Source: Terrabacter aerolatus
GTDB taxonomy: Bacteria; Actinomycetota; Actinomycetes; Actinomycetales; Dermatophilaceae
Reading direction: 5' to 3'
Assembly (NCBI RefSeq): GCF_007991735.1
Contig: NZ_BJYX01000024.1
Span: forward strand, 7,727-47,726
DNA length: 40,000 nt
A model generated the notes under the pieces. That model was not told the DNA's origin. It worked only from the letters and a program-made list of their open reading frames with translations, and made no database searches. Shown piece after piece: positions 12,497-29,222 of this stretch (the first letter of the stretch is position 1; every line of letters starts with the position of its first letter). A program made the position numbers and the translations under genes.

Positions 12497-13416
12497 TTCT
12501 TTCCTCCATGGTTCACGATGGCGTGCGTTTGGCGCGCGGCGTCGAAACGGGACAGGCGGATGCCTTGTGCGTCTGGGAGCGTCTCGAATCGGATCCGTCC
12601 GCGTTCCTCGAGGATGCGCAGTGCCTGTCCGACTGAACTGTCCGCGCACTCGGCGACGATGCCTGGGTCGGGATCGGCTCCAAGGAGAGCCACGAGTCCG
12701 AACCGCATTGACCCACCATGAAGGACGGGGAGCGCTTGTCCGATGCGTGCCAACAGGTCGTGGATCGAGAGACGTTCGGCGGGCATCGCTCGTAGGGCGT
12801 CCTCCACCGCGGGCACCGGCAGTGGAACCACGCCGGTCCGGTCCTTCATGACTGACGGGGTCGCCAAACCGAGCGCGACAATCCAACGCGACGCAGCCAC
12901 CCAACGCGTGTCATTGACGATGGCCCACGATTCACGATCGGTTGTGCCGAACTGTTCAGACTGGAGTGTTTGTAGATTCTCGGTCCACGACAGCGGCTGC
13001 CCCAACGCGTCCTGTGCCAACACCCAGGTCAGGGCTCGGTTGAGGTCACGAGCGCCGCTCGTGTGTCCATCGCCCAGCTGCGTTGCCCAGACATCGCCAT
13101 CCCGGCCGAGGTCGAACACGCGGGCTTGAAGGAGTCGTCGAAACTCCGGAGGGTCGAACGGTGCCTTCGGCGTCGGAACCTGAGCGCCTAGTTGAAGAGT
13201 TCCGTCGGGATTCGTCTCGAGCACGTTGATGGCGCGCAGAGAGGAGATCGTGTTCTTCAGTCCGCCGGCGGCCTCGCTGCCGGGGTTCAGCCCCTCCGGC
13301 TTGAAGGCGGCAACGAGATCGTCCTCGGTTGACGAACGTCGTGCGTCGAGAAGGTAGTTCACGATGGCGCGGCCGAGGCCTGGCAATGTGCGTGGCGGGT
13401 TGAGTACTGCCATCAC
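12493..13416 (-). CDS. hypothetical protein (DpdG position)
   Basis: 307-aa ORF. Its GTG start overlaps the upstream helicase stop (GTGA at 13413-13416). No motif recognised; assignment by synteny only. Confidence 0.6.
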   Translation of the reverse strand: MMAVLNPPRTLPGLGRAIVNYLLDARRSSTEDDLVAAFKPEGLNPGSEAAGGLKNTISSLRAINVLETNPDGTLQLGAQVPTPKAPFDPPEFRRLLQARVFDLGRDGDVWATQLGDGHTSGARDLNRALTWVLAQDALGQPLSWTENLQTLQSEQFGTTDRESWAIVNDTRWVAASRWIVALGLATPSVMKDRTGVVPLPVPAVEDALRAMPAERLSIHDLLARIGQALPVLHGGSMRFGLVALLGADPDPGIVAECADSSVGQALRILEERGRIRFETLPDAQGIRLSRFDAARQTHAIVNHGGKK

Positions 13417-16010
13417 AGGCTCCTAAGGAAGTACGACAGCGTCCAATGCGGGAAGCGAATGGCCTTCACGGGTTGGCCCGGATACTGAGGGTCCGGCGTG
13501 TCCTCCGGGAGTACGACGATCCGAAGGGAACCCGCCTCCCCAGCAAGCCAACTCAACTGAGGTGGATCGGTCCGGTCCAATAGGACCAGCGTGGGGATCG
13601 GGAAGGTTCGGGGCGGACCCGCGATGATCGGATCGATGGCGACCAGTCCCTCGGGTGCAGAGCGACCTGCCCCCACCACTGCGGGCAAGCCGGTCAGACT
13701 TGCAGATGCCAAGATTCCTCGGACCCCGTGTGTCACTGCCTTTGTGACGAGTTCGGCAAGGTGGATCCGAAGATCTCCCTCGGGATAGGTCACCACCAGT
13801 GACCGGCCGCTGGAGGCCATCGACGCAAGGGTGGGACTTACTCCGCGGTGCAACAGGGGGAGCGGTGCTTCTTGCACCACTGGTCGTGCAGCCCGCAAAG
13901 ACGGCTCATGGACATGCGCGGCAGCGGGACATCCCGAACACGCGGGTGCGACCACCTGGTGAGCGCGCATCGCGCCCACCTCGTCGTACGCATATTCCTC
14001 GCTCAGGATTGAACCCCAGCATTCATCGAGCCTGAACATGCGCTCGATGCGGTCGCGCGAGCCGGCTTCTGAATAACGGATCTCACGTCGGACCTTGTCG
14101 ATCGCACGCAGGACGGTGGCCTCATCGACATTCGCAATGCCCGAGCGGATGCGCACGGTCGCACGCGTCACGTACGCGGACCAGGCTGTATCGACTCGCT
14201 TCTGCCAATCGGCTTCAGATTCGTCCTCGGCGCGCTCCAGGGTCGGCGGGGGAGTGTCGACAATGTCGAGCACCCCGGCCCGTTGTAGCAGGACCAGAGT
14301 GTTGCGGTTCCACAGTTGGTTGCTGTCGGAGGCGTGGGAGAGCCAGGGAGGGACGGTGCTGGTGTCCACGACGAGTTCGCGGCGCGTTGGGTCCGCCGAG
14401 ATGCGCGCCGTACGCATCGCGTCCCATCGACCCCAACTCTTCTTATCGCCAAGAACGGTGGCATTCTCGATGCTGCGACCTTCCTGGGCATCGGCGGTGC
14501 TCGGCATCCAGACCGATACGGCTGCGTGACCGTCGCGGCCACCGCGGCCAACCTCTTGATAGAAGCGGTCGACTGAGGCCGGCACACAGGCGTGGATGAC
14601 AGAACGAACGTCACTCTGGTCCACACCAAGCCCGAACGCACTGGTCCCCACGACCACGTCGACGGACGTTGGGCCAGCATCGCCAGACCACGCCCTCAGG
14701 ATTTCGAGCCTGTCGTCCGCGTGCACATCGCCATGGAAGACCGCCGTGCGGCCAAATCCCGCCTCTCGGAGTCGAACTGCAAGCGTGTCGGCCGACTCCT
14801 TCTTGCTGGTGTAAACGATCGCCGGCCGCGGAAGGTGGTGGAGTGCTTCGACAACCCGATCGAGGCGCGCCTCGTTAGGGACGGGCGGCGCAAATAGGTA
14901 ACGGAGTTCCGTGCGCAGGTACGTGGAACCTACGAACAGCGAAGTGTCGGCTCCGGCGAACAGTTCGTCGTTCAGCAAGAGGCCCTGTCGGGAGAGTGTC
15001 GCAGTCAGCAGTTCTACGTGGGGCGGTGCTACCCCTTGAGCCCGGGCGACCTCTCTCAGTTCGGCGATCAGGGAGGCGACTACTTGAAACTCGGGTCGAA
15101 AGCTCAGGCCCCAGGTGCGTACGAGGTGCGCCTCATCGATCACAACGTGGCTCAGTTCGCCCCGGGCAGCTAGGCGCCGCAGAGTCTGCGCCAGACCGGT
15201 GACCAGAGCCTCGGGCGAGGTGTAGAGAACCCTTTGCGTCCCTTCGCGCAGGCGCTCCTTGATCGCTTCCCTTTCGGTCGCGGCACGATCGCCGTAGTAG
15301 GCCAATTCCTGAGGAAGGCCCTGGTTTGGAAACCGCTGATGAAGTTGGCGCTCCTGGTCAAGCGCCAGCGCAATGGTCGGCACCACGACGACTGTCACGC
15401 TGGTACGAGCGAGTAGTCCAGGGGCGATGCCGACCAAGGACTTACCTGTTCCGGTGGGTAGGACCACGTGGAGTGTGCTGCCTGCAGGTGCAAGCGCAGC
15501 AGCCCGGACGGCGCTCGCTTGGCTTCGCGAACGGTAGGTGTCAATCCCAGCAATCGCAGCCACGGACGGGTCTACCGGCACTGCCATGTCGTGCCGGGCA
15601 AAGGTGGATACGACGCCCTCCGGACCTTCGAAATTGTCGGGGCTTGTGCAGGCCATATCGATCCAACGCCCGTCGCCGCGGAGCCAGTCGGGCGCCCAGT
15701 CTGGGCCAAGGGTGACGCGGTGCTCGTGCAGCCCGAACGTGGCGACGTCGAGGTTTGCCCGGCGAAGCGTCTCGAGCGGAAGGCCGCGGTCGTAGAGGCG
15801 AAGGGTCAGGTAGCTGTTGGAATGCCCTGTAGTCCCTCGGCGATGACGCAGTACCTGGCCTAGAAGCGCGGCAACGTCACCCGCGATCTCGGGCCCCGGA
15901 ACATCTGAGAACCATGCATCTACCAGTCGGCGGTGGGGCCCGATGAGAAGATCGCGGTTGTTTGTGGCTCCAGCCAACTTGGCTGCCCCCAGGTTCCACT
16001 GATCCGTCAT
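13413..16010 (-). CDS. dpdF: RecQ-like DEAD/DEAH superfamily-2 helicase (DpdF-like)
   Basis: 865 aa. Walker A LPTGTGKSLVG, motif II VVIDEAHLV, TAT (LLTATLS), motifs V/VI VVGTSAFGLGVDQ...YQEVGRGGRDG. Starts 1 nt after the SNF2 gene stop. Confidence 0.85.
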   Translation of the reverse strand: MTDQWNLGAAKLAGATNNRDLLIGPHRRLVDAWFSDVPGPEIAGDVAALLGQVLRHRRGTTGHSNSYLTLRLYDRGLPLETLRRANLDVATFGLHEHRVTLGPDWAPDWLRGDGRWIDMACTSPDNFEGPEGVVSTFARHDMAVPVDPSVAAIAGIDTYRSRSQASAVRAAALAPAGSTLHVVLPTGTGKSLVGIAPGLLARTSVTVVVVPTIALALDQERQLHQRFPNQGLPQELAYYGDRAATEREAIKERLREGTQRVLYTSPEALVTGLAQTLRRLAARGELSHVVIDEAHLVRTWGLSFRPEFQVVASLIAELREVARAQGVAPPHVELLTATLSRQGLLLNDELFAGADTSLFVGSTYLRTELRYLFAPPVPNEARLDRVVEALHHLPRPAIVYTSKKESADTLAVRLREAGFGRTAVFHGDVHADDRLEILRAWSGDAGPTSVDVVVGTSAFGLGVDQSDVRSVIHACVPASVDRFYQEVGRGGRDGHAAVSVWMPSTADAQEGRSIENATVLGDKKSWGRWDAMRTARISADPTRRELVVDTSTVPPWLSHASDSNQLWNRNTLVLLQRAGVLDIVDTPPPTLERAEDESEADWQKRVDTAWSAYVTRATVRIRSGIANVDEATVLRAIDKVRREIRYSEAGSRDRIERMFRLDECWGSILSEEYAYDEVGAMRAHQVVAPACSGCPAAAHVHEPSLRAARPVVQEAPLPLLHRGVSPTLASMASSGRSLVVTYPEGDLRIHLAELVTKAVTHGVRGILASASLTGLPAVVGAGRSAPEGLVAIDPIIAGPPRTFPIPTLVLLDRTDPPQLSWLAGEAGSLRIVVLPEDTPDPQYPGQPVKAIRFPHWTLSYFLRSL

Positions 16011-16011
16011 G

Positions 16012-19000
16012 TCAGTTCGTCAGTGCTCGGCCGGAGAGAACCACAAGCCCAGTGCTGTCAAGCCGAAGTGAGGGCGCGGTCACGGCGGCGGACATGGCGC
16101 GGGCAATGACTTCCTCGCGATGGAGTTCCTCATGCAAACGCACGAGTTCGGATCCTGTAGTGCGCATGGCTCGCAGTCGCAACTGGGAGAGCCTTGTTGC
16201 CGCGTCGCGATCGGCGATGGCAGAAGCTCGCTCGACCGCCGAACGAACGTCCTCGCGACTGCGGACGAGATGCTGAGCCGCTCTTTCCGCGGATCGCCAA
16301 GACTCGCCCCAGTGTTGTGCGGGAATGAGGTCGTAGGCGTGCTGGATCCTCATACGGTTTAGCGAGTAGTCGCCGCCGGCACGAGTGGTGCCCGGTTTCG
16401 CGTATGGGGCGTCGAGGGCGTCGAGATGCGTCCGCGCGGTCAACTCCTGCGCGCTGGCTGTCATCCAGACGCTGACGATGATGGGAGGAAAGATTCCATC
16501 GGCCCGCCGCGTAAAGGCGAGCTGGTCGATGCCCGCACTGACTGTCACGAGTTCACCACGCGGGTCCCTTGAGGAGGGAACATCAAGGGGGTTCGCCTCG
16601 ACGGCGTAGTCGAATCGGTAGAGCGGAGTGTCCTCACGGGGCCATTCGGGCATCGAACGCCACATGCCGAAGGCTCGGCCACGATCGTCGTGCCACAGGA
16701 AGTCGCTGACGGCGTCGATGAACGGGTCTCCGTAGCGGTAGAGGTGGACGTCCTCGCTCGAGAGGGCAAACTCCCGAACGAAGGTTCCGACGTGGTCCTT
16801 CAACGGAAGGAAGTCGCGAACGAGGCGCGATGCCGGGATCAGCGGAATCTGCGCTTGCTTCCCCGGCAGACGGCCGAGCGACTCGTATCCGCCCAAGCCA
16901 GTGGCAGGGTGGCCTCTCCGCTCGAATCTAAGGTTGCCCGCCGCGCCATTCGCTGCGAGAAGGTTGTTGCTCACGTTGGCGAATGTTGACGCATCGGATT
17001 CCACGTCAGCGATCCGCGCATACACGGAGCGCTCGTCGACGCTCGTCTCCAGGCTGTCGAGCGCGTCCTGTTCGCGGACGCGCTCGATCTCCGCGTCCAG
17101 CATCTCTCGAACCCGCGCCACCGCGGAGGGAACACCGTCGAGTCCCATTTGAAGGAGGATGTGCCACGCCTCGTCCGTTGCGTTGTCGACGGCTTGCTGA
17201 AGGCTGGCGACCGAGTTGTCGAAGATCCCGAAACCGTCCTTGAGGATGCGCTCCCAGGCGCCGGAGTAGGCGTCATCCGCGTGTCCCGAAACGACATATG
17301 ACCGCCACCCCCCGGACCCTTCGGGCGACCACCGGTCACAACGGCCGATGCGCTGCTCGAGACGGTTTGCTGATCCCGGAAGTCCCAGATGCACCAGAAC
17401 ATTCGCGAACTGGAGGTTGCGACCCTCTTCGGCCGATGAATCTGCGACCATGACTGCGGCATTATGGATCGCCTCGAACGAGCGCACCGAGCGGTCGTTC
17501 TCCTGGCTACTTTGGGTCGTCACATGGCAGAAGACAGACGTGGCGCCGAAGAGATCCTTGAGCTCCTCAGCCAGTTCGGTTGCCATTTCAGTTGTGGGGC
17601 AGAAGACGACAGCACGCTCGTTGGACGTCATGACCTCGCTGAGCGCGTCAGCGAACGGGCGGCTGACGGTTGCCCGTCGGTCCGCGTAGGCCACGTCCTG
17701 CACGATGCGCTTTAGCGCCGCGATTTCGTCAGCGGCTAGCGGCGCGGCGGCCCGCTCCAGTGCCCACTTCTGCAGGGCACTCGGGTCAAGGCTCACTGCT
17801 GCGGCCTCGGCGAATGCGCGCCCGGCCAGGGTCATCGCCGCCGGGTTGCCCTCTGCCGACGCAAGAGCCTGTTCCCGCCATCGGTCGAGAGCCTCTGCAA
17901 CGTCGTCGCGCAGGGTCGACTCCAGGGGAAGTGGCTCAGGCGCGCGACGACCAGAGACCCGATAGGTGCCCTCCAACGCCGTGGTACGCCGGGTCCGGAG
18001 CATTCGTCGGTGTACGCGGTACACCTCGGCAATGTGCGTGCGCAGCGCCTGGATCAGGGATGCCGTCTCGTCCCTGTCTTGAGTGGCCACCGACTCGCGG
18101 GCGCGCGCTACCAGATCGCGGACCTCGGCGTCGTCGGGGAACGAGGCTTCGATCTCCGTCAGGCGCCCCTTCAGAAGGACCCCTGGGAGGCTGGGTTGCA
18201 GCCCGAGAAAGACCCGGCCCAAGCCCGCACGAGCCTCCAAGCGCGATCGAAGTTGCTCCGCATTGGTGTCGGCATAAACCGCCGGGTCTAGCAGTTTGAG
18301 CATCGCGAGGAAGGCGTCCTCGTTATGCAGCGCTGGTGTCGCGGAGAGCATCAGTAGGCGCGGACTTGCAAGTGCGATCTCACGAAGCCGCTGGAAGCGG
18401 AGGGCGAGGTCGGGATTCGTGCTGACTGACATTCGTGCAAGGTTGTGTGCCTCGTCGACTAACACGAGGTCGGCCGCGTCCCACGCCGACGGCTCGTCAT
18501 CACGACTGAAGCGAATATGCGACTGGGTGAAGTCTTGCACGCGGAATTTCTGGGTCAACTCTCGCTTCCACTGGTCGAGTAGGAACGGAGGCAAGATGAA
18601 CTGGATCCGAAGACTGGGGTTATCCAGCAGCATTTGGCGGATGATGATTCCCGCCTCGATGGTTTTGCCTAGGCCGACCTCATCGGCGAGAAGATAGCGC
18701 TGGACAGGATCCTGTAGAACGCGCCAAGCGGTCTCGACCTGGTGGGCATGGAGTTCGATGCAGCTCGACAGCACAGCGCGCATGCCATGAGCGGCCGAGC
18801 GCTGCTGAAGGATGCTGCGGAGGAACGGCAAGCGCAGTTCAGCGAGCATGGGCGACTCGAGCATGCCGGCCTCGCCAAAACCCACCGGGTCCGTCAGTGG
18901 CTTATTCCATCGCACGTAGAGGCGTTCTTCCGGGATGAAGCCTTCCCACTCGTGGCCCCGCACATGGATGTCGTTGTACGCCGTGATCTCGATGACGCGT

Positions 19001-19443
19001 CCGGAGCGCCAAATGCCGGTTGGGTCCTGCCAGAAGGCACGTTGCTCGGGAGGGAGGGTCACTCGCCGGAGGCTTTCGCGTGACACAGCCTCCCGATAGC
19101 GGTCCGAAGGCGCCTGGCCTGGCGTGTCGAAGTACTCAAGGACCAGAGCATCACCTTCCCGCGCAACGAGTTTCCCGGGCCCGAGGACGTTGTCGGAAGA
19201 AGTGAGCAGGTCACCTCCCGATAGCGACTTGCCCCGGCCCCCCTGCCTGGACGTGGAGGAGGCCTTGCTGACCCTTCTCGCTGGTGTGTGGTTCTCGACC
19301 GCTTCGCCATTCGCGTCTCGCGACCCTCGGCATCGTGGGAACTGCGAGCAACCCCAGAACGCCTTGCCGACGTTGGCGCCCTTCGATGCAAACTGCATGA
19401 CCATTGCCGCTTCGCAACGCGGACAACGAACGTGGTCAACCAC
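16012..19443 (-). CDS. dpdE: SNF2-family helicase with N-terminal topoisomerase-type C4 zinc ribbon (DpdE-like)
   Basis: 1143 aa. N-terminal CPRC...GCSQFPRC zinc ribbon. SNF2 motifs LLADEVGLGKTIEAG, LVLVDEAHNL, LMLSATP, and C-terminal RLEQRIGRCDR. GTG start at 19443, with GGAGGG 6 nt upstream. Confidence 0.85.
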   Translation of the reverse strand: MVDHVRCPRCEAAMVMQFASKGANVGKAFWGCSQFPRCRGSRDANGEAVENHTPARRVSKASSTSRQGGRGKSLSGGDLLTSSDNVLGPGKLVAREGDALVLEYFDTPGQAPSDRYREAVSRESLRRVTLPPEQRAFWQDPTGIWRSGRVIEITAYNDIHVRGHEWEGFIPEERLYVRWNKPLTDPVGFGEAGMLESPMLAELRLPFLRSILQQRSAAHGMRAVLSSCIELHAHQVETAWRVLQDPVQRYLLADEVGLGKTIEAGIIIRQMLLDNPSLRIQFILPPFLLDQWKRELTQKFRVQDFTQSHIRFSRDDEPSAWDAADLVLVDEAHNLARMSVSTNPDLALRFQRLREIALASPRLLMLSATPALHNEDAFLAMLKLLDPAVYADTNAEQLRSRLEARAGLGRVFLGLQPSLPGVLLKGRLTEIEASFPDDAEVRDLVARARESVATQDRDETASLIQALRTHIAEVYRVHRRMLRTRRTTALEGTYRVSGRRAPEPLPLESTLRDDVAEALDRWREQALASAEGNPAAMTLAGRAFAEAAAVSLDPSALQKWALERAAAPLAADEIAALKRIVQDVAYADRRATVSRPFADALSEVMTSNERAVVFCPTTEMATELAEELKDLFGATSVFCHVTTQSSQENDRSVRSFEAIHNAAVMVADSSAEEGRNLQFANVLVHLGLPGSANRLEQRIGRCDRWSPEGSGGWRSYVVSGHADDAYSGAWERILKDGFGIFDNSVASLQQAVDNATDEAWHILLQMGLDGVPSAVARVREMLDAEIERVREQDALDSLETSVDERSVYARIADVESDASTFANVSNNLLAANGAAGNLRFERRGHPATGLGGYESLGRLPGKQAQIPLIPASRLVRDFLPLKDHVGTFVREFALSSEDVHLYRYGDPFIDAVSDFLWHDDRGRAFGMWRSMPEWPREDTPLYRFDYAVEANPLDVPSSRDPRGELVTVSAGIDQLAFTRRADGIFPPIIVSVWMTASAQELTARTHLDALDAPYAKPGTTRAGGDYSLNRMRIQHAYDLIPAQHWGESWRSAERAAQHLVRSREDVRSAVERASAIADRDAATRLSQLRLRAMRTTGSELVRLHEELHREEVIARAMSAAVTAPSLRLDSTGLVVLSGRALTN

Positions 19444-19448
19444 TCAGA

Positions 19449-19480
19449 ACCCTCCGTACGACCGGCGACTCCGGGAGGGT
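19449..19480 (-). promoter_or_regulatory. candidate RNA hairpin sequestering the Shine-Dalgarno of the SNF2 (dpdE-like) gene
   Basis: On the minus-strand mRNA, ACCCUCC (19480-19474) can pair with GGAGGGU (19455-19449). That is a 7-bp stem with an 18-nt loop. The 3' arm is the GGAGGG ribosome-binding site 6 nt upstream of the GTG at 19443. Confidence 0.35.
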
Positions 19481-19517
19481 AACTCGGAAACCGGGTCCGT
19501 GGGGGCAAACGGCCGGT

Positions 19518-19535
19518 TAGGACACGGATGTCCTA
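19518..19535 (-). other. small hairpin overlapping the stop codon of the dpdB-like gene
   Basis: TAGGACA-cgga-TGTCCTA: a perfect 7-bp inverted repeat with a 4-nt loop, covering the TAG stop (19533-19535). It lies at the only intergenic gap of the operon. Confidence 0.3.
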
Positions 19536-20636
19536 CCTCAGCGCCTGTAGGAGGAAGTTGGTCAGGAGTCGGATGTCGCTGGGTGTGTTTTGGAGGCCGT
19601 TCCACCGGCGCACGTCGTCCGCAGCGAACTGCCAGGTGCCAGTGGTCCAAGCGCAGTGTGGGACCAGGCGAGCAAGCCTGCCCTCCAGATCGAGAGCATC
19701 CAGTTCGGTCTCGTCGTACCCCTCAGTCATAGCATCCATGACGTACCCCAGAGACTGAACTCCGACGCCATGGGTGAGGCGGGACTTGCGGGGTTCGGCC
19801 TGCCACGCGTCGTAGAACGTGGATTGCACAGCACTCCAGAAGCGGTCCAGATGCCCGACGATCTTGTCAACGTTCCCGGATCCGTCGTCAGGGTTCCGGT
19901 ATTGGTATAGAGCGCCGTCGGAGAGGCTGTTCTCGATCATCCTGAGGACGCTGTTGTCCTTAATCTCTCCGTCAGGTTGGGTGGGCGTCGAGATTCGACT
20001 GGCAAAGGGGTGCCCAACTTGCTTGCGAGGGCCAGAATTTAGCCGCGTCATGATCTGCGCGGGTAATTGCTTTCGCGCATACGCAGGCGGCAGGTGGCCC
20101 GTAGTATTTGGCAGCAGTTCGTGGATCAATCCCTTGGGAAGTGGCTTGGTGTTATTGACCAGGATGAATTGCGACCGCTGCTCTTCTTCGCCGTCGGCGA
20201 TGAATCCAACCGCCGCGAGAGGAAATTCTGCCAGGTCGGCATCGCGAATGGCTGCGCTGCGCTGCTGTCCATCGACGAGCCACGCTGGGCGTGATTCCTC
20301 GGACGCTGCCTCGTCGACCGGAATTATGAGTTCGCCCACGGTCGCATAATCAACGGCCGACTCATGGCTAATTTCGAAGCGGACTCTGGCGTCAAAGGCA
20401 AATACCACGGCGTTAGGAAGCAGGGCCCCGTCGGATTCAAGATAGCGTCGAATCGCCCGAATATGGCTGATCACCTCGGGACGCTGATAGCCCTTGAGGT
20501 CGGCTTCATCGCGATGGACCCGCGACACCGTAGCGAAGTCATGAATGCGCTTCCCGTCCACGCCAAATGAGTAGATATGCTTCCGGCCCTGTCGAATCCG
20601 CAGGGCAGGAAGGCGCAAATCGTATCGGTCAGCCAT
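19533..20636 (-). CDS. dpdB: DGQHR-domain ParB/DndB-like protein (DpdB-like)
   Basis: 367 aa. GYQRP...WLVDGQQRS motifs of the DGQHR / ParB-like nuclease superfamily. Its ATG overlaps the dpdA-like stop by 8 nt, with GGAGGA upstream. Confidence 0.8.
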   Translation of the reverse strand: MADRYDLRLPALRIRQGRKHIYSFGVDGKRIHDFATVSRVHRDEADLKGYQRPEVISHIRAIRRYLESDGALLPNAVVFAFDARVRFEISHESAVDYATVGELIIPVDEAASEESRPAWLVDGQQRSAAIRDADLAEFPLAAVGFIADGEEEQRSQFILVNNTKPLPKGLIHELLPNTTGHLPPAYARKQLPAQIMTRLNSGPRKQVGHPFASRISTPTQPDGEIKDNSVLRMIENSLSDGALYQYRNPDDGSGNVDKIVGHLDRFWSAVQSTFYDAWQAEPRKSRLTHGVGVQSLGYVMDAMTEGYDETELDALDLEGRLARLVPHCAWTTGTWQFAADDVRRWNGLQNTPSDIRLLTNFLLQALR

Positions 20637-21867
20637 GGGATTCCTCCGCTAAGTCCTCGTGGGCAAGTCGATGCATCTTATCGGCGAGCACCGACAGGTT
20701 GTGAAACCCGCGCCTCTTGTTGCGTTCGGTGCCTCGAAATATGGCTACCTCGATGCCAAGCTTCTGACAGACAGAGCATGAGCATGCGGTCCAGGGGGCA
20801 GCGCGAAGAGTCCGTTCATATTGAGCGCGATAGGTCTTCTTGCTCTGGCAGAGTCGCTCGTAAGAAGACAGGGCCTCCAAGGCCTCCTGCAGGCGCGTCT
20901 CTGAACCGTCGAACGCCCGCAGCGAGCGTAGGCATTCGCGTTCGCCCTTGAGGGCGTCACTTTGGGACACCCGTCCGGCAAGAATCGCGCGCCGGAGCGT
21001 CGGGTTGCCGTCCACTTGGGGGACTCTCAGTGCCACGAATGCCTCGTCGCGAGTGTGATAATTGAGGCGGTCATCCATGAAAGCTTGCCGAAACGCGGAA
21101 GTGCTATCAAAGCTGGTTACGCCGAGTTCCGCAAAGCGTGCCATCGACTCAACCCGGGTGATTCCAAGCAGGTGAAGTTCGCATTCGGGCTTGCGCACCG
21201 CTTCGATCGCTTCGAGGCATGCGAGTATCTCCCGCGTCTTGAGCGGCACCATGCCGCCGAGCGCAATACGGCGAAATCCGAATTCCTGAAGGTTTCTCAC
21301 GCTGTCCGCATAACTAGCAGGGCTCCACCCTTGAGCCGCGCCGACAGGTTCGATATCTGCTCCGCGCTCCGCGACCCGGGTGATGAACTCTTCTGCAAGT
21401 CGCAGGGTCAAACGTCGGCGCTCGGCCCAGGCGGGGTCTACTGTTGAAAAATCCGCGGCAGGTTGGTAGCCGAAGATGATGTGGTCCACGCTTACTCCGG
21501 CATCAAAGCCGCATCCTTCGTAGAAATCGAGAGTCTCGTCCACGGTGACAGGAGGAACAGGTTCGCTGGCGTAATTGAACGCACCGTTGTCACCCAGAGT
21601 TTTAACCTCACTAGGAAGGCGAAAAAACTTCTTCAAGCCCAGGCGGTAAAGGCGTGCTCTCTGGGCTGCTGTGTACTTGCCCGCGCCCTTAATCGAACCG
21701 TCCACTATGGATTTGCTTACGAGGATTCCGTCGTAAGGTGCCCGAGCAAGGACTTCATGGGCGTATCGATCGTCACGCTGTCGAATTCGGTGGGCAGCGT
21801 ATTCGTCGTGCAGGAAGTCGTACGTGGGGCTGACCAGGTCCTGGCTGTCGGGGAAGAAGAACTTCAC
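20629..21867 (-). CDS. dpdA: tRNA-guanine transglycosylase-family paralogue (DpdA-like DNA 7-deazaguanine transglycosylase)
   Basis: 412 aa. TGT-like elements: LGDNGAF, RIALGGMVPL (compare TGT AIGGL), GVTSFDSTSAF (compare TGT FD[CS]), and the zinc site CSCSVC...RGFHNL (CxCxxC...H). GTG start overlaps the upstream stop (GTGA at 21864-21867). Context is two DGQHR genes, not tRNA-modification genes. Confidence 0.85.
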   Translation of the reverse strand: MKFFFPDSQDLVSPTYDFLHDEYAAHRIRQRDDRYAHEVLARAPYDGILVSKSIVDGSIKGAGKYTAAQRARLYRLGLKKFFRLPSEVKTLGDNGAFNYASEPVPPVTVDETLDFYEGCGFDAGVSVDHIIFGYQPAADFSTVDPAWAERRRLTLRLAEEFITRVAERGADIEPVGAAQGWSPASYADSVRNLQEFGFRRIALGGMVPLKTREILACLEAIEAVRKPECELHLLGITRVESMARFAELGVTSFDSTSAFRQAFMDDRLNYHTRDEAFVALRVPQVDGNPTLRRAILAGRVSQSDALKGERECLRSLRAFDGSETRLQEALEALSSYERLCQSKKTYRAQYERTLRAAPWTACSCSVCQKLGIEVAIFRGTERNKRRGFHNLSVLADKMHRLAHEDLAEESHG

Positions 21868-23000
21868 TTGCGATGGGTCCGTTCCGCTAGATAGGTGCGG
21901 ATGAGGAAGTTTGACAAGGCGCTGATGTGCCGGGGCGTGTTTTGCAAGTCATTCCATGCGAGTCCAAGTGCGTCCCAGGAACCCCCTGTCCAAGCGCAGT
22001 GAATAGCGATGAGCCTGAGTTCCGTTGCAGCTGCCGCTCTAGCTTTCGGATCGTCGTCGCGCACGTGTGTCATGACGCGGTCCATGAGTCGTCCCATAGC
22101 GCGAATGCCAACGCCATGCATCAGACGACTCTCAGTCGCAGGTTTACCCCATGCGTCATGGAAGACATCGTGGACTGCTCCCCAATATGCGATGAGCAGA
22201 CGCCGGATGCCTTCCGTATCGGTCGTGCCAGTCGCGATGTTGCGATATGGGAAAAGGACGCCAGAAGGAGACTCGATGGACTCGCGGACGGCCTCGATCA
22301 GGCTTGTGTCTGTGACAAAGGTCGACCTTTTGGCGTCGGGGTCCGTCGAAGCGCGCCGAATGATTCCCCGGAACGGCGACTCCGGATCTTGATTGAGCAT
22401 GTCCACAAGCGCAGATGGCAACTGCCGTGTTGCCATACGGCCCGAAGGGACGCGAGTGATCTCAGGTAGCAGTTCGGTCACCAGTCCGGAGGGAAGCGGT
22501 TGAACCGTGTTCACCCTCAAGAACTGTTCGCGTTGTAGTTCAAGGGTGGGCGCAACGAATCCAGCGACAGGCACTGGCAGGCGCCGGTTCTTCGTGCGAG
22601 ACAACGCGAGGCTTCGCTGTTGGCCGTCTACGATCCACGCTGGTCGAGGACCATCGCTATCTCTACTGATCGGAATCTCCAATGTTCCGGAGACTGCCAG
22701 GCCGTCGCTCGTCGAGGGTCCACGACTCGACCTCCAGCGAACCTCCTGCGGGAGGGCGAGGATCAGGCCGTTGGGAAACAGTGGGGCCTCGGAGTCGAGG
22801 TACTCCTGAATCTGCTTGACGTGCTTCTTCTTCTCCGGCCTCTGGTAGCCAATCAGCTTGCCGGCCTCATCGCGGCTGATGCGTGCGACGTCGGCAACAA
22901 GGTCGACTTCCTCAGCGGCGAGTGTGAACAGGTAGAGGGGGGTGTCATCACTTTGGAGCACCTTCAGTGCTCGCCGTTCCAGCCATTCAATGCCGCTCAT
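21864..23000 (-). CDS. second DGQHR-domain ParB/DndB-like protein (full-length paralogue of the DpdB-like gene)
   Basis: GYQRP...WIVDGQQRS. It aligns over its whole length with the 19533..20636 product, for example QFLRVNTVQPLPSGLVTELLP vs QFILVNNTKPLPKGLIHELLP, and CAWTGGSW...LQNTPRHISALSNFL vs CAWTTGTW...LQNTPSDIRLLTNFL. I prefer the ATG at 23000 (MSGIEWL) because of its ATGA overlap with the upstream stop; the track start at 23048 would overlap by 52 nt. Confidence 0.8.
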   Translation of the reverse strand: MSGIEWLERRALKVLQSDDTPLYLFTLAAEEVDLVADVARISRDEAGKLIGYQRPEKKKHVKQIQEYLDSEAPLFPNGLILALPQEVRWRSSRGPSTSDGLAVSGTLEIPISRDSDGPRPAWIVDGQQRSLALSRTKNRRLPVPVAGFVAPTLELQREQFLRVNTVQPLPSGLVTELLPEITRVPSGRMATRQLPSALVDMLNQDPESPFRGIIRRASTDPDAKRSTFVTDTSLIEAVRESIESPSGVLFPYRNIATGTTDTEGIRRLLIAYWGAVHDVFHDAWGKPATESRLMHGVGIRAMGRLMDRVMTHVRDDDPKARAAAATELRLIAIHCAWTGGSWDALGLAWNDLQNTPRHISALSNFLIRTYLAERTHRK

Positions 23001-23866
23001 GAGGTGAGGGCCTCCTCGAATAGTCGCGTGAACCGGCGCTGCTCGCACGCTATGCCGGAGTTGCGCAGATTCCTTAAAGCAACTGTCTTGGGCAACTTCG
23101 GATTCAGTCCTCGCATCTGGTCGATCATTTGCTTGATGGCGTGATCAGAGACGGGCTTGCGGTCGTAGCGTTCCTGCTGCTGAGCGCCCAGGGCCCAGGT
23201 AGCCCAGTTGCGGTGGACCTCGGGTGCGGCTGGCATCTTGCCATCGGCGATCTCTAACCAACGGATCGCCATGCGTGCGTTCAAACTCGTGATCGTGCCG
23301 CCGAGTGCTCCTCGGAGGTTCCGATCCGATCGGATCCGGAGACTCGCCGGCGTGTCCGACGCCCCGCCGAAGACAACCGTCGATTGAGGATCGAGCGCTT
23401 GGAGGTCGTCCGTCATGGCCCGCGCGTACGACTCCGACAAGACCCATATAGAAGGGGCGTCGGCTCGAGGGCCAGCGGCGTGGGCGAGTTGCTTCCACCA
23501 AACGCTCGCATCAGGAGTGGCCTGCACCACGGAGTCACGGTGGCCGGTGGCGAACGTTGCTGCATAGGGCGGCGCGACGTCATCGACCGGGCGCAGGCCC
23601 AAGCCCGCAGACGCGACGAAGACCTCCGGTTGGAATCCAGTGCTCCGAGCGGTAGCGGCCAGTCGCTTGGCTTGAGTCCAACTCTCCCCCGCGTAGAGGT
23701 CGAGCAGACGCGTCGTCGGCCTTGTCGCACGGAGGCGGCCCACCCAGTCATCGGCGCGTTCCTTGACGGTGCCGGTTGGTAGCGTACGGGCCATCAGGTC
23801 GTGGTGCGGAGCACCCGTCTTGCGGTCGGTACAGGTGACCACGATCGTCAGTTTTTGGCGCGCCAT
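22997..23866 (-). CDS. dpdC: DpdC-like candidate (first gene of the operon)
   Basis: 289 aa. N-terminal TIVVTCTDRK...LYAGESW...VFVASAGLGLRPVDDVAPPYAATF resembles the DUF6884-type layout (C-[ST]-x-x-K, LY, SA-x-x-GL, PY) by eye. It is the remaining modification-module gene next to the dpdA/B-like genes. Assignment is tentative. Confidence 0.5.
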   Translation of the reverse strand: MARQKLTIVVTCTDRKTGAPHHDLMARTLPTGTVKERADDWVGRLRATRPTTRLLDLYAGESWTQAKRLAATARSTGFQPEVFVASAGLGLRPVDDVAPPYAATFATGHRDSVVQATPDASVWWKQLAHAAGPRADAPSIWVLSESYARAMTDDLQALDPQSTVVFGGASDTPASLRIRSDRNLRGALGGTITSLNARMAIRWLEIADGKMPAAPEVHRNWATWALGAQQQERYDRKPVSDHAIKQMIDQMRGLNPKLPKTVALRNLRNSGIACEQRRFTRLFEEALTS

Positions 23867-23967
23867 GACCCCTCGGATACAAAACTACGGCTTGGTTGTC
23901 GGTACTCTAGCGTGTAGTTTCGTCGGACGGTGCGCGTACGCACAGCCGGTATCGAGAGGTGGATGTT
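23867..23967. promoter_or_regulatory. divergent control region between the dpd operon and the preQ0 operon
   Basis: About 100-bp, comparatively A/T-rich spacer between divergent start codons. It contains the inverted repeat AAACTAC (23882-23888) / GTAGTTT (23914-23920) and GTGCG-cgta-CGCAC (23930-23943). GAGAGGTGG lies 6 nt upstream of the queC ATG. Promoters themselves are not identified. Confidence 0.4.
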
Positions 23968-24666
23968 ATGGGCCGCAAGGCAGTAGTGCTGCTCAGCGGG
24001 GGGCTGGACTCAACGACGGTCCTCGCGGTCGCGAAGGATCAGGGGTTCGAGCCGTACGCAATCAGCTTCCGCTACGGCCAACGGCATGTCGTTGAGCTCG
24101 AGGCAGCGCGCCGGGTGGCGCAGGCCGCCGGGGTGGAACGCCACGTCGTGTGCGACATCGACCTGCGAATATTCGGAGGGTCGGCGCTCACGGCCGACGT
24201 CGACGTGCCGAAGCATCAGTCGGCGGAGGAGTTGTCAGAGGACGACATCCCCATCACCTACGTCCCGGCACGCAACACCGTCTTCCTCTCCCTCGCACTG
24301 GCGTACGCGGAGGTCGTCGGCGCGACCGACATCTTCATCGGTGTGAATGCCCTCGACTACTCCGGATACCCCGACTGTCGGCCCGAGTACATAGTTTCGT
24401 ACGAACGCATGGCCAACCTGGCCACTCGCGCCGGTGTCGAAGGCAATGAACTGAAAATCCACACTCCCCTGATCAGCCTCACCAAGGCTGAAACCGTTGA
24501 GTTGGGAACGCGCCTGAGGGTCGACTACTCCCTGACCCTGTCGTGCTACGACCCCGATGACCAGGGGCGGGCGTGCGGTCACTGCGACTCATGTTTGTTG
24601 CGCTTGCGCGGCTTCGCTGACGCCGGACTCGTTGACCCGGTCATTTATCAGGAGGCGACTGCGTGA
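23968..24666 (+). CDS. queC: 7-cyano-7-deazaguanine (preQ0) synthase QueC
   Basis: N-terminal PP-loop [14 protein letters not shown] and C-terminal Cys cluster CY...[10 protein letters not shown]. The ATG at 23968 is preferred over the track's GTG at 23959 because of RBS spacing. Confidence 0.9.
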
Positions 24667-25298
24667 GTTACAAGATCAAGGAAATCTTCTACACCCTTCA
24701 AGGCGAGGGCACGCATGCCGGCCGCCCCGCCGTCTTCTGTCGCTTCACGTCCTGCAATCTGTGGACAGGCCGTGAAGCCGATCGTGAGAGAGCGATCTGC
24801 AAGTTCTGCGACACCGACTTTGTTGGCACGGACGGCGAAGGGGGCGGCAAGTTTCATGACGCCGAGGCGTTGGCGACCGCAGTGGCGTCTAAATGGCCGG
24901 TGAACGGCGGAGGGCGACCGATGGTTGTGTGCACGGGCGGCGAACCCTTACTGCAGCTGGATGCCGACGCCGTGGATGCCCTCCATGCACGTGGCTTCTA
25001 TGTTGCAGTCGAGACGAACGGGACTGTCACGCCGCCCCCCGGTATCGACTGGCTCTGCGTGAGCCCCAAGATCGGGTCCGAACTACTCGTCACGAAGGGC
25101 CACGAGCTCAAATTTGTCGTCCCTCAGGGCGGCGTCGATCCGACCACGTTCGAAGACCTCGAGTTCGAGAGTTACCGAGTGCAGCCGATGGATGGCCCGG
25201 ATGTGGCGGCGAACACCGAACTGGCCGTGCAGTTTTGCCTCGACCACCCGCTATGGCAGCTCAGTCTGCAGACGCACAAGCAGCTAGGAATACCGTGA
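24663..25298 (+). CDS. queE: 7-carboxy-7-deazaguanine synthase QueE (radical SAM)
   Basis: [16 protein letters not shown]...[29 protein letters not shown] carries the Cx14CxxC cluster variant known from Burkholderia-type QueE. GTGA overlap with the queC stop. Confidence 0.9.
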
Positions 25299-25663
25299 CC
25301 CACAACAGTGAGATCTATAGGGAGTTTACGTTTGAGGCGGCTCACAGGTTGCCGAACGTGCCCGAGGGCCACAAGTGTGCACGCCTGCACGGACACTCGT
25401 ACCTAGCGGCGGTCCACGTCGCTGGTCCCGTCGGCGAGGAGACGGGGTGGGTGCAGGACTTCGGCGAGATTAAGGCGGCATTCAAGCCCCTCGAGGAGCA
25501 ACTTGATCATCACTTCCTCAATGAGGTCCGGGGCCTCGAGAACCCGACGAGCGAGGTGCTTGCCAAGTGGATCTGGGATCGCCTCGTAGTGGCTCTTCCG
25601 AACTTGACCGAGGTGAGGGTGCGCGAGACGTGCACCTCGGGTTGCATTTACCGAGGAGAGTAG
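25295..25663 (+). CDS. queD: 6-carboxy-5,6,7,8-tetrahydropterin synthase QueD
   Basis: [27 protein letters not shown]...LDHHFLNEV is the PTPS/QueD His/Cys signature. The track ORF (from 24893) overlaps queE in another frame. The real start is the GTG at 25295, overlapping the queE TGA (GTGA). Confidence 0.9.
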
Positions 25664-25667
25664 AAAC

Positions 25668-26453
25668 GTGGCGCTGCCAGACATTCAGGACCAGGTTGAC
25701 GAGCGAGGAATCTCCCTCGACAACGTCGGCATTGACGGAGTCCGGATGCCAAGCACGTTCTCAGACGGGGTGACCACCCAGGCTGGAGTGGCGTCGTTTG
25801 AAGTAGTGGTGCAACTGCCCGAGGACCGGCGCGGCACCCACATGAGTCGCATGGTCGAGCTCGTACACGAGCACCTAGAGGTCATCGACCCGCGCGAGTT
25901 GCCCACAGTCCTGAAGCAGGCAGCCTCCCGCCTTGACGTTGGTGTGGCCACCATCGGCATTGGTCTGCCGTTCGCGACGCGCGTGTTGTCACCCGTGTCC
26001 GGGCGAGAGGCCTGGCAACCGAGTGACTTGCGTTTGCGGGCAACGCTGCGTGGGGACGTTTTCGAACTCGTAACATCTGTTACTAGCGAAGTGACCAGCC
26101 TGTGCCCATGTAGTAAGGCGATCAGCGATTACGGCGCACACAATCAACGCAGCGTTGTAACCGTGGATGTGCACGGACACGACGACTGTCCGTACCCCGT
26201 TTCGGTCGCCCGTCTGGTGGAACTGATTCGCCTGACGGGTTCTTGCCCCGTCTTTCCGATCGTGAAGCGACCGGACGAGCGCTCTATCACCATGACGGCC
26301 TTCGAGCACGCCGCATTTGTAGAGGACATGGCGCGCGACCTCTCTGGGCTGCTAAGGAAGCAGCGAGTGCGTCATAGCGTCCGAGTGCGGAATCTGGAGA
26401 GCATTCACAGTCACGATGCCATCGCCTCGTTGTCGTGGCGCCCCGAAGGGTAG
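25668..26453 (+). CDS. folE2: GTP cyclohydrolase I type 2 (FolE2 / GCYH-IB)
   Basis: 261 aa. LPDIQD...GISLDNVGIDGVRMP N-terminus, RRGTHMSR and SLCPCSK motifs typical of the FolE2/MptA family. Starts 4 nt after the queD stop. Confidence 0.85.
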   Translation: MALPDIQDQVDERGISLDNVGIDGVRMPSTFSDGVTTQAGVASFEVVVQLPEDRRGTHMSRMVELVHEHLEVIDPRELPTVLKQAASRLDVGVATIGIGLPFATRVLSPVSGREAWQPSDLRLRATLRGDVFELVTSVTSEVTSLCPCSKAISDYGAHNQRSVVTVDVHGHDDCPYPVSVARLVELIRLTGSCPVFPIVKRPDERSITMTAFEHAAFVEDMARDLSGLLRKQRVRHSVRVRNLESIHSHDAIASLSWRPEG

Positions 26454-26568
26454 AACCGTTCGCTCATCAAACTGAGACAAAGTTCGCCGGTCAGGGCTTC
26501 AACATGAACTGACTGTCGGCGTCTTATGTCATCATCTCTAGTGGGTCAAGAGGCGCGACCGTTACCCA

Positions 26569-26616
26569 CCTTGGAGGGGTCGCCCGGCAACCGGTCCGCC
26601 CCGGTGCCGTCCAAGG
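26569..26616 (+). other. GC-rich extended hairpin downstream of folE2 (terminator or leader structure)
   Basis: Outer stem CCTTGGA (26569-26575) / TCCAAGG (26610-26616). Inner stem GGC(a)ACCGG / CCGGTGCC around a 6-nt loop. A second small hairpin CCGGC-cgc-GCCGG follows at 26622-26634. No U-tract. Confidence 0.3.
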
Positions 26617-26697
26617 AAGACCCGGCCGCGCCGGCATCCGTCGGTCTGGCCAGAGCGGGCCTCGGTTCAGGGGCTCCTTGGACCGAAAGGGCTGCCG

Positions 26698-27192
26698 ATG
26701 CACCCATCCCTGTCTGCCGAGCCGAGCGCGGCAACTCCGCTGACCGTTCTGGTCGACGACACGCGCGCCTTCCGTGACCGGCGACCCCACGTACAGGTCC
26801 GCCACGGGGACGACGCCGTGGAACTCCTTCGTCGCGTCCGTGACCGACTGGTCGACGAGTTGTGGCTCGACTACGACCTCCTGGACGGGACGACGTCCGC
26901 CAGCGCGGTCGACCATCTCGTGGCCCGAGCAGCGCGCGGTAATCGCTTGTCCGTCAATGTGATCGAGGTTCACGCCGCTCGGGTCCCGGAGGCGCTGCAC
27001 ATCACCCAGCGTCTGCGGCGCGCTGGATACCCCGCACGACGGTGCTACGCGCAGGGCATCTGGACGCGATTCGACGCAACGCTCCACGATGAGTGGCGAC
27101 CCGAACCAGGTGGCGGCATGTCTGATCGCCGCACCCCGATCGTCTCGGAGAAGGCTGCCCTCGCCGAGATCACGGAGGGCGTCTACGCATGA
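26698..27192 (+). CDS. small receiver-fold (cREC-like) protein, tentative
   Basis: 164 aa with high third-position GC. LTVLVDDTRAF...LWLDYDLL...VIEVHAARVPEAL resembles by eye the stand-alone 'cyclic-phosphate processing receiver' pattern (LDDxR ... LDHDLG ... HSxNP). ATGA overlap with the next gene at 27189-27192. Confidence 0.45.
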   Translation: MHPSLSAEPSAATPLTVLVDDTRAFRDRRPHVQVRHGDDAVELLRRVRDRLVDELWLDYDLLDGTTSASAVDHLVARAARGNRLSVNVIEVHAARVPEALHITQRLRRAGYPARRCYAQGIWTRFDATLHDEWRPEPGGGMSDRRTPIVSEKAALAEITEGVYA

Positions 27193-29222
27193 TTCGCGAT
27201 GCCTACCTCACGGTGCAGTTGCGCCTGCACCTTCCCGCCGGACTCCTCGTCATCGAGAGTGCGGAGTCCGGGGTCGCGGTCGGTGAAGCACCCCCGCAGC
27301 CGATCCACATCGTCACGGCATACAACCCGCGCGGCCGTGGGGCCACCGAGACGGAGAACCGTCGCGCGCAGCGCGCACTGGTCGAGCAATTGGATGGGGG
27401 GCAAGCGTCGCACAACCCTGCGGCCGGAGCCGACCCGGCTTGGCTGCACGTCGAACCCAGCGTCGCCATCGTCGGGCTCACGCGGCAGGATGCCATTGAC
27501 CTCGGTCGACGTTTCAATCAGGACGCCGTCTTCGAGTGGACGGCTGATGCGTTGACGGTCCTCTCATGCACGGACGACACGACGGTGGCGCTGGGCTGGC
27601 GCCAAATCACTCCTGACGCGAGGGCAGTCGGCGCCGATCGGGCATGGCGGGAGCTCGGCCTGGCGTCGCCCTACGTCCCGATCGCCATCGCCAGCGCGGC
27701 GCTGGACCGGGCCCTCGAGGTGGCCGACGACCAGCGAGCCGCACTGCTCAACAACGTCTTCCTTGGCTACGCGGCGGACTACTGGGCACCGCGCGTCGAG
27801 GCGGAGCGAGTGCGCCGCTCACAGCGCAAGGAACAGCAGCACGAGGCGGACCGAGCCGCGGCCGCGGAAGCGCGCGCGTCCGAGGAGAGGCGCGAGGAGC
27901 GTCGTGCCCGCCAGGCGGAGGCCCGCAAGCGCAACGCAGCCCAGCATCGTGAGCACGTCGAGGCAGGATGGCCCGGAAGTTGGCGGCCGCGCCACGTGAG
28001 CCAGTGGGTCGAACTCGGCGGGGACATCGACGGGGCCCGGGGCTGGTCGGAGGAGGGGTGGTCGGCGGCGGATGTCGTCGGCGCGGCCGCTGCAAACGGG
28101 AGCGGCACGAACCTGCCCCGCTCCGTCGGTGACCCTGACGAGGTGGCATGGTGGGGCGACTCCCTGGCCGGCATCGCGGCGGGCACGTGGCCGCAGGTGC
28201 CCGCTTCGACGCGGGTCTCCGTCAAGCGGTCCTTCTCGGACGGCCGGCGCGACCGGTGGTTCGTGCTGCCGGACGCGGCTGGCAGCGTCCGGGTCGAGCG
28301 CTGGGAAATGGCTACCCCTTCGGCGACCGCACCACGTGAGTGGACAAGCACCGTTGTCGCGGCATACCCCACCATAGAGGCCGCGTTGGCTGGAGTGCGT
28401 GAGCTCTCGACCCTGAGGCCCGACGTCGTCTGTGAGCTCAACGTGGCGCGGGACATCGGCGTGAACCTGCTGGAGCACCTGCGTGTCCCGCGAGTCGGCG
28501 TCGACCCGAATGCTGAAGGTCCAGGCATCGACGAAGAGGCAGCTGTGGCGGCCGGGCTCGACCTGGACGAGATCGCTCGTCTCGTGCAGGGCGTGCCATC
28601 GCGCCTCGTGCACTGCACCGTCGATGGCCAGCCCGTCGTCGCGGTGCGAACCGCCCAAGGATGGCGGTGGCTCACGGTCGGCGACGACGAGATCGAGAAC
28701 GGCGAGCTCGCCGGGGAGACCGTCGTCGAGTACCGGTGGTTCAGCGAGTCCGGTGGTGCGCCGATCAGCTGGGACGGTGGCGGATCGATCGGGGTGGTGG
28801 CCCCCAAGCTCGCGGTCATCAGGCAATGGGGTGACCTTGGCGACGGTCGTGAGTTCGTCACGTGGCCTGCGTCCGCGAAGGGCCGCGCCCGCGTGGTGGG
28901 CCAATGGATCAAGGAGTCAGATCTCGAGACCGTCGCGGCACTCGTGCTCGAGCCGTGGCCGTGCGACGAGCAGTGGCTCGTCTGGTACGACGTGTCGATC
29001 TCGGACTCGATGACGAGACGCGTGATGCGTTGCGGCGGCGCCTGGCCGGCAACCCCGACTACGCGACCGCGCGAGAGGCAGTCCGTCACCCGGGGAGCAA
29101 GCCGGGTCGCGCGCTCGCGGCAGCGCTCGAGCGAGCTTCCGAGACGGGCTTCACAGGCGACCTGTACCGGCTGCAGTGGCTTTCCCACGTCGAGGAGGCA
29201 ACGCGATGAGCGCGTTGCCTGA
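27189..29222 (+). CDS. large protein with N-terminal DUF3293-like domain and a charged E/R/A-rich linker; 3' end uncertain
   Basis: IHIVTAYNPRGRGATETENRRAQRAL...EPSVAIVGLTRQDAIDLGRRFNQDAVFEW resembles the DUF3293 pattern. RVEAERVRRSQRKEQQHEADRAAAAEARASEERREERRARQAEARKR is a charged helix. The last ~75 codons are Arg/Ser-rich, while another frame looks more protein-like (see findings). Confidence 0.55.
   Translation: MIRDAYLTVQLRLHLPAGLLVIESAESGVAVGEAPPQPIHIVTAYNPRGRGATETENRRAQRALVEQLDGGQASHNPAAGADPAWLHVEPSVAIVGLTRQDAIDLGRRFNQDAVFEWTADALTVLSCTDDTTVALGWRQITPDARAVGADRAWRELGLASPYVPIAIASAALDRALEVADDQRAALLNNVFLGYAADYWAPRVEAERVRRSQRKEQQHEADRAAAAEARASEERREERRARQAEARKRNAAQHREHVEAGWPGSWRPRHVSQWVELGGDIDGARGWSEEGWSAADVVGAAAANGSGTNLPRSVGDPDEVAWWGDSLAGIAAGTWPQVPASTRVSVKRSFSDGRRDRWFVLPDAAGSVRVERWEMATPSATAPREWTSTVVAAYPTIEAALAGVRELSTLRPDVVCELNVARDIGVNLLEHLRVPRVGVDPNAEGPGIDEEAAVAAGLDLDEIARLVQGVPSRLVHCTVDGQPVVAVRTAQGWRWLTVGDDEIENGELAGETVVEYRWFSESGGAPISWDGGGSIGVVAPKLAVIRQWGDLGDGREFVTWPASAKGRARVVGQWIKESDLETVAALVLEPWPCDEQWLVWYDVSISDSMTRRVMRCGGAWPATPTTRPRERQSVTRGASRVARSRQRSSELPRRASQATCTGCSGFPTSRRQRDERVA

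Follow-up and report, generated by a model that had tools for sequence, protein, structure and literature searches.

The DpdA system has been covered in a 2016 review in RNA Biology (PMC5699537) and by Gedara et al. in 2023 (PMC10164549). In vitro, Salmonella DpdA replaces guanine in duplex DNA with preQ0, a reaction that requires both DpdB and ATP. The ATP is hydrolyzed by DpdB, which is a homodimer; DpdC turns the nitrile into the amide and requires neither DpdA nor DpdB for this, and replacing Asp256 of DpdA with Ala abolishes guanine exchange (PMC10164549). Here we describe a 40,000-nucleotide (nt) stretch of DNA from the actinobacterium Terrabacter aerolatus (the window), in which an open reading frame (ORF) of 412 amino acids (aa) with a GTG start occupies 20629-21867 on the minus strand. 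We conclude, with a probability of about 0.93, that this gene, dpdA, belongs to a complete Dpd (7-deazapurine in DNA) restriction-modification island acquired by horizontal transfer and encodes its DNA-guanine transglycosylase. A DNA-guanine reading of this kind was published between 2016 and 2023, and annotation pipelines already name such genes.

The ORF is present on the minus strand as described in an initial annotation of the window, and the plus-strand reading of the same interval is full of stop codons. The starts of orthologous proteins, which begin MKF(Y/F)FPDSQD, coincide with its start. Against NF041059, the NCBIfam equivalog for DpdA, the protein scored 599.3 bits (cut-off 200) and covered profile positions 1-405 of 406, and a PADLOC search likewise returned DpdA (5.8e-183). 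Among solved structures, the sole strong match was 7UI4, the Salmonella Montevideo DpdA described as a 'DNA-guanine transglycosylase' (E 1e-122), with query residues 1-399 aligned to chain residues 24-425, including the DpdA-specific insertion that follows the nucleophile strand. Identity between the two proteins is 48-49% over the full length, and they have in common the TIM-barrel core of the TGT superfamily together with this large C-terminal insertion. By every feature tested the ORF is DpdA, and by curated thresholds it is neither Tgt nor ArcTGT; nothing in the sequence counts against the DpdA explanation. Within DpdA, a known family whose exchange of guanine in DNA for a 7-deazaguanine base is the marking step of the published Dpd system, the gene is an ordinary case. 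A protein identical to its product has been recorded from Terrabacter aerolatus under the label 'hypothetical protein', while orthologues from other actinobacteria, at 67-79% identity, carry the NCBI name 'tRNA-guanine transglycosylase DpdA'.

That product name, which still includes 'tRNA-guanine transglycosylase', agrees with another reading, in which the enzyme is of the bacterial Tgt or archaeal ArcTGT type and acts on tRNA, its position in a defense island being incidental. The protein shares its catalytic Asp residues and zinc site with tRNA TGTs, and the Pfam TGT domain, the only Pfam family that the protein reached, was matched at threshold (26.9 bits against a gathering score of 26.3). 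However, the protein falls far below the ArcTGT model TIGR00432 (23.2 bits, cut-off 350) and below the tgt_general model TIGR00449 (22.6 bits, cut-off 47.6), and no bacterial Tgt equivalog was matched in the NCBIfam profile search. In the alignment with Tgt, ArcTGT and characterized DpdA for which the initial annotation had called, DpdA matched along its full length, whereas the TGTs of the PDB aligned over only about 120-170 residues with E-values of 1e-4 to 3e-3; for bacterial Tgt, the similarity extends over about 120 residues (E about 3e-3). In all of the 80 related loci introduced below, moreover, the gene overlaps flanking dpdB genes and lies within dpdC-K; queF, queA and queG were not found nearby among the window ORFs. 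We therefore regard a tRNA substrate as extremely improbable. The proposal of the initial annotation that the substrate is DNA guanine rather than tRNA G34 is supported, because the equivalog score is three times its cut-off and the tRNA-TGT models failed, and because of the homology to Salmonella DpdA and the surrounding Dpd gene set.

Bacterial Tgt, as known from E. coli and Zymomonas, has in common with the Terrabacter protein the TGT superfamily fold, the Asp of the FD motif, a base-facing Gln, a GG loop and the zinc ligands; unlike DpdA, it acts on tRNA G34, inserts preQ1, has a GGLAVGE-like loop and works without a ParB-like ATPase partner (PMC10164549). ArcTGT (P. horikoshii, 1IQ8) is closer in base choice: it is specific for preQ0, its loop follows the same GG-hydrophobic-small-bulky-bulky logic, and its nucleophile strand is GVDLFDS (PMC10164549). 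Unlike DpdA, it acts on tRNA G15 and carries extra C-terminal PUA-type domains.

To locate the active site, the residues named for Salmonella DpdA by Gedara et al. (PMC10164549) were transferred to the Terrabacter protein via a 10-sequence alignment. The general acid/base Asp95 corresponds to D93 and the proposed nucleophile Asp256 to D254; Phe99 and Leu236, which stack on the base, correspond to F97 and L234; and Asp130 and His181, which bind the base edge, correspond to D128 and Q179. Gly182, also of the active site, is G180, and Phe265, whose Ala mutant showed little change in DNA binding in an electrophoretic mobility shift assay, is F263. The preQ0-selective loop, G206-L211 in Salmonella, is the identical GGMVPL at 204-209. 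All of the active-site residues named in that work are thus kept here except His181. D93, D128 and D254 are invariant in the alignment, as is the CxCxxC...H zinc site (C362, C364, C367 and H389), and the catalytic Asp pair, the Asp130 equivalent, the loop and the zinc site are all held in common with Salmonella Montevideo. The motifs quoted in the initial annotation are present at residues 91-97 (LGDNGAF), 200-209 (RIALGGMVPL), 249-257 (GVTSFDSTS) and 362-367 with H389 (CSCSVC...H).

The initial annotation had also placed a Thr at the position of the nucleophile, by an alignment made by eye, and this does not hold: the register was off by three residues, and D254, the nucleophile, is intact. 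In HMMER profile alignments, GVTSFDS pairs with GIDMFDC of E. coli-type Tgt and with GVDLFDS of P. horikoshii ArcTGT, which sets T251 opposite the first, non-catalytic Asp of GIDMFD and D254, within TSFD, opposite the Asp of FD. In Tgt this FD Asp is the nucleophile (Asp264 in E. coli, Asp280 in Z. mobilis). Because of this pairing with both strands, we assign D254 as the nucleophile and T251 to the position of the first Asp. A Thr replacing the nucleophile is ruled out, since D254 falls on the catalytic Asp whether the protein is aligned to E. coli-type Tgt, to ArcTGT or to Salmonella DpdA.

The dpdA gene stands in a tightly packed run of minus-strand genes, in which overlaps of 4, 4 and 8 nt join dpdC, dpdB, dpdA and a further dpdB. 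Upstream, the stop codon of one dpdB (copy 2, 21864-23000, minus strand) overlaps the dpdA start in a GTGA at 21867-21864. Downstream, in ATGGCTGA at 20636-20629, the ATG of the other dpdB (copy 1, 19533-20636, minus strand, 367 aa) lies 8 nt before the end of the dpdA TGA, giving an 8-nt overlap. The initial annotation had described the neighbors as ParB/DndB-like DGQHR proteins coupled to dpdA on both sides; the coupling stands, but the motif in both is DGQQR, as it reportedly is in Salmonella DpdB (PMC10164549). Both copies exceed the NF041060 cut-off of 300 bits, copy 1 with 500 bits and copy 2 with 397 bits. For copy 2, the longest ORF begins at GTG 23048, and the NF041060 alignment begins at aa 24 of that ORF; the probable start is ATG 23000 (378 aa), which overlaps the stop of dpdC in an ATGA and is preceded by GAGGAGG. 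The dpdC gene itself (22997-23866, minus strand) encodes 289 aa and matches PADLOC DpdC PDLC02817 (3e-101), with no Pfam or NCBIfam match for its product. By homology, this product would convert preQ0 in DNA to the 7-amido form (dADG), the function given for DpdC in PMC10164549.

Beyond copy 1 of dpdB, the restriction genes continue on the same strand, so that the minus-strand order is dpdC-dpdB-dpdA-dpdB-dpdE-F-G-H-(I)-J-K-D. The SNF2-type helicase gene dpdE (16012-19443) scored 1155 bits against NF041062 and contains the Pfam domains Helicase_C and SNF2-rel_dom; the RecQ-like DEAD/DEAH helicase gene dpdF (13413-16010) scored 649 bits against NF041063, with Pfam DEAD and Helicase_C. They are followed by dpdG (12493-13416; NF041064, 152 bits, cut-off 80) and by dpdH (9440-12496; NF041065, 682 bits), which encodes an AAA-type ATPase. 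For dpdH the probable start is GTG 12496, with GGAGG upstream and a GTGA overlap with the dpdG stop, rather than TTG 12904; the NF041065 alignment begins at aa 146 of the long ORF. After an ORF of 244 aa in the position of dpdI (8733-9467), placed between dpdH and dpdJ by synteny with the Enterobacter cluster and divergent in sequence, come dpdJ for a large DEAD-box helicase (4240-8736; NF041067, 1800 bits), dpdK for a nuclease of the phospholipase D (PLD) family (3719-4243; NF041068, 185 bits; Pfam PLDc_2) and dpdD (1564-3729; NF041061, 610 bits). Each of DpdD, E, F, G, H, J and K exceeds its NCBIfam cut-off. A Dpd set of modification genes (dpdA-C) and restriction genes (dpdD-K) was thus found in one cluster, with DpdI weak. 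The helicases and nuclease that the initial annotation had seen downstream on the same strand are DpdE, DpdF and DpdJ, and DpdK. As a separate observation, the N terminus of DpdE carries about 76 extra residues before the start of the DpdE profile, and a C4 zinc ribbon of the Topoisomerase I type lies at aa 5-40 (Pfam Zn_ribbon_Top1, 26.6 bits, under the gathering score of 32).

Adjoining the operon are genes that the initial annotation had omitted. Divergent from dpdC, across a spacer of 92 nt, the plus strand encodes queC (preQ0 synthase, 23959-24666; TIGR00364, 215 bits; Pfam QueC, 260 bits) and queE (radical-SAM 7-carboxy-7-deazaguanine synthase, 24663-25298; TIGR04508, 335 bits). These are followed by queD (6-carboxytetrahydropterin synthase, 25295-25663; TIGR03367, 104 bits; Pfam PTPS), whose GTG start at 25295 forms a GTGA overlap with the queE stop, and by folE2 (GTP cyclohydrolase IB, 25668-26453; NF010200, 216 bits; Pfam GCHY-1). 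Together, the four genes make up the complete route from GTP to preQ0. The absence of queF, queA and queG from the window, reported in the initial annotation, was borne out, with no match to these or to tgt among the ORFs tiling the 40,000 nt.

This gene content bears on which base the enzyme inserts. A DpdA-type enzyme could in principle insert another 7-deazaguanine, such as preQ1 or G+, and leave a final mark other than dPreQ0 or dADG: phage relatives of DpdA insert several different 7-deazaguanines (PMC10516641), and His181 of the Salmonella enzyme, at the base edge, is Gln in Terrabacter. Yet the pathway encoded in the island stops precisely at preQ0, with no later gene such as queF or gat-queC; a DpdC homologue is encoded as well; and the GGMVPL loop, proposed to select preQ0 and exclude preQ1 (PMC10164549), is identical to that of Salmonella. 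Moreover, Gln179 matches the aligned residue of the tRNA TGTs. All nine aligned actinobacterial sequences have Gln at position 179, as does the DpdA of Agrobacterium vitis, whereas the Enterobacter DpdA has His, and profile alignment to PDB entries shows Gln at this position in bacterial Tgt and ArcTGT as well. Since Gln is common to Tgt, ArcTGT and actinobacterial DpdA, it is the Salmonella His, and not Gln179, that departs from the common state. Insertion of a base other than preQ0 is thus very unlikely. The few single-DpdB examples, Enterobacter being from a single-DpdB cluster, give only a hint of a link between residue 179 and the number of DpdB copies.

The presence of two DpdB proteins is mildly unusual and differs from the Salmonella-type arrangement: in the Enterobacter cluster of that type a single dpdB lies downstream of dpdA, whereas in Terrabacter two flank it. 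The two copies, both overlapping dpdA, are 37% identical to each other. The single Enterobacter DpdB shows 45% identity to copy 1 and 36.5% to copy 2, and the downstream copy 1 is the orthologue of the single DpdB of Salmonella-type clusters. We scanned for relatives of DpdA with one genome per species and examined the layout in the best 80 of the 424 relatives found, all of them actinobacterial. The order dpdC, copy-2-like DpdB, dpdA, copy-1-like DpdB was present in 80 of these 80 best loci. Within them, 70 columns, including DGQQR, hold the same residue in both paralogues with conservation of at least 95%, while 54 columns are conserved at this level in copy 1 only and 36 in copy 2 only, with 14 fixed at differing residues. 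Because of these shared and copy-specific conserved columns, both copies look functional and specialized. A degenerate second DpdB, for example a pseudo-ATPase, is ruled out by the retention of DGQQR and the 70 shared columns across the 80 loci.

The arrangement extends beyond Actinobacteria. In a plasmid collection, nine alphaproteobacterial records had two places for DpdB, and records from Enterobacter, Nonomuraea, Euzebya and Variovorax had one. The Agrobacterium vitis plasmid CP146243 (locus L082, 6883-10407) has the same dpdB-dpdA-dpdB order, its upstream and downstream copies correspond to those of Terrabacter, and Gln stands at the His181 position; unlike Terrabacter, it carries its preQ0 genes downstream, on the same strand, and the stretch examined has no annotated dpdD-K nearby. 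Because the layout is common to the 80 actinobacterial loci and to alphaproteobacterial plasmids, the dpdB duplication is old and widespread. NCBI annotation already calls both copies DpdB, and in a 2025 survey no other dpd gene had as many additional copies as dpdB (n=801; PMC12235509). No functional study of extra dpdB copies was found in the literature searched. We tentatively suggest, at somewhat less than even odds, that DpdA in these actinobacteria and alphaproteobacteria works with two old, specialized DpdB paralogues in place of one homodimer, possibly as an obligate DpdB1/DpdB2 heterodimeric NTPase clamp that would load or position DpdA on DNA. A DpdB1/DpdB2 heterodimer may reasonably be supposed.

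Taken together, the protein families, the conserved residues and the content and order of the genes are those of a Dpd island; its chemistry, dependence on ATP and restriction phenotype would, by homology to the Salmonella system, follow the same course. FolE2, QueD, QueE and QueC of the island would make preQ0 from GTP. DpdA, with D254 as nucleophile and D93 as general acid/base, would then remove guanine from duplex DNA via a covalent Asp-deoxyribose intermediate and insert preQ0, an exchange predicted to depend on the NTPase activity of the ParB-like DpdB, of which there are two paralogues here. DpdC would next hydrate the nitrile group of the inserted preQ0, yielding dADG, and DpdD-K, among them three helicases, an AAA ATPase and a PLD nuclease, would restrict DNA lacking the mark. 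For the modified sites in Salmonella, a partial CxGCxG motif has been reported, and DNA modification is reported from experiments on Kineococcus radiotolerans, which has a dpd cluster. Some caveats apply to this account. The His181 that faces the base edge in Salmonella is replaced by Gln179, and the second DpdB is without a characterized counterpart. In addition, the ORF in the dpdI position matches NF041066 DpdI weakly (17 bits, E 0.0036, cut-off 150); assigned by position more than by score, it may be a DpdI that has diverged strongly, or else an unrelated gene in its place. The locus has in common with the Salmonella Montevideo system the partners DpdB and DpdC and the restriction genes dpdD-K. 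Besides the replacement of His181 by Gln179 and the second DpdB, it is unlike the Salmonella-type system in gene order, as dpdE-K-D follow on the same strand, in that the island includes the full preQ0 pathway, and in that the host is a high-GC actinobacterium.

The limits of the island are visible in base composition. The dpd and preQ0 block has a GC content of about 62%, folE2 being the last gene of the lower-GC island, and from about 27 kb onward the value is about 70%; this contrast fits horizontal acquisition. No tRNA gene that could serve as an island integration site was found in the window, whose ORFs outside the island encode two-component system, PASTA, DUF4352, DUF6308, GH15 and MpaB proteins. 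In the spacer between dpdC and queC, no preQ1 riboswitch or other RNA element was detected, even at E up to 1. Scans of 19300-24200 returned no promoter-like sites, and terminator-like sites below chance expectation; both scans are uninformative for a high-GC actinobacterium. At the left edge, two plus-strand ORFs of about 59% GC adjoin dpdD (33-674, 213 aa, and 671-1543, 290 aa); searches of Pfam, NCBIfam and PADLOC gave no match for them, relatives were absent from the 80 related loci, and they may be further island cargo.

Just outside the island on the other side, a full-length SAM-IV riboswitch lies at 26544-26661 on the plus strand (44.4 bits, gathering score 38). Directly 3' of it are a plus-strand ORF of 164 aa (26698-27192) with a cREC_REC (cyclic-phosphate-processing receiver) domain and then one of 677 aa (27189-29222, plus strand) with an N-terminal DUF3293. 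These are not the genes of methionine and SAM metabolism that usually follow SAM riboswitches. The riboswitch and both genes are kept in Terrabacter sp. Ter38, where the two proteins are 63% and 75% identical to those described here.

The Terrabacter locus provides a well-delimited actinobacterial example of a Dpd system with its own full preQ0 pathway. Its dpdB-dpdA-dpdB layout is fixed across many Actinobacteria and is common to them and to alphaproteobacterial plasmids. Why DpdA needs an ATPase partner was termed an 'enigma' in the 2023 biochemical work (PMC10164549), and this natural two-paralogue form of DpdB might separate functions that are joined in the Salmonella homodimer.

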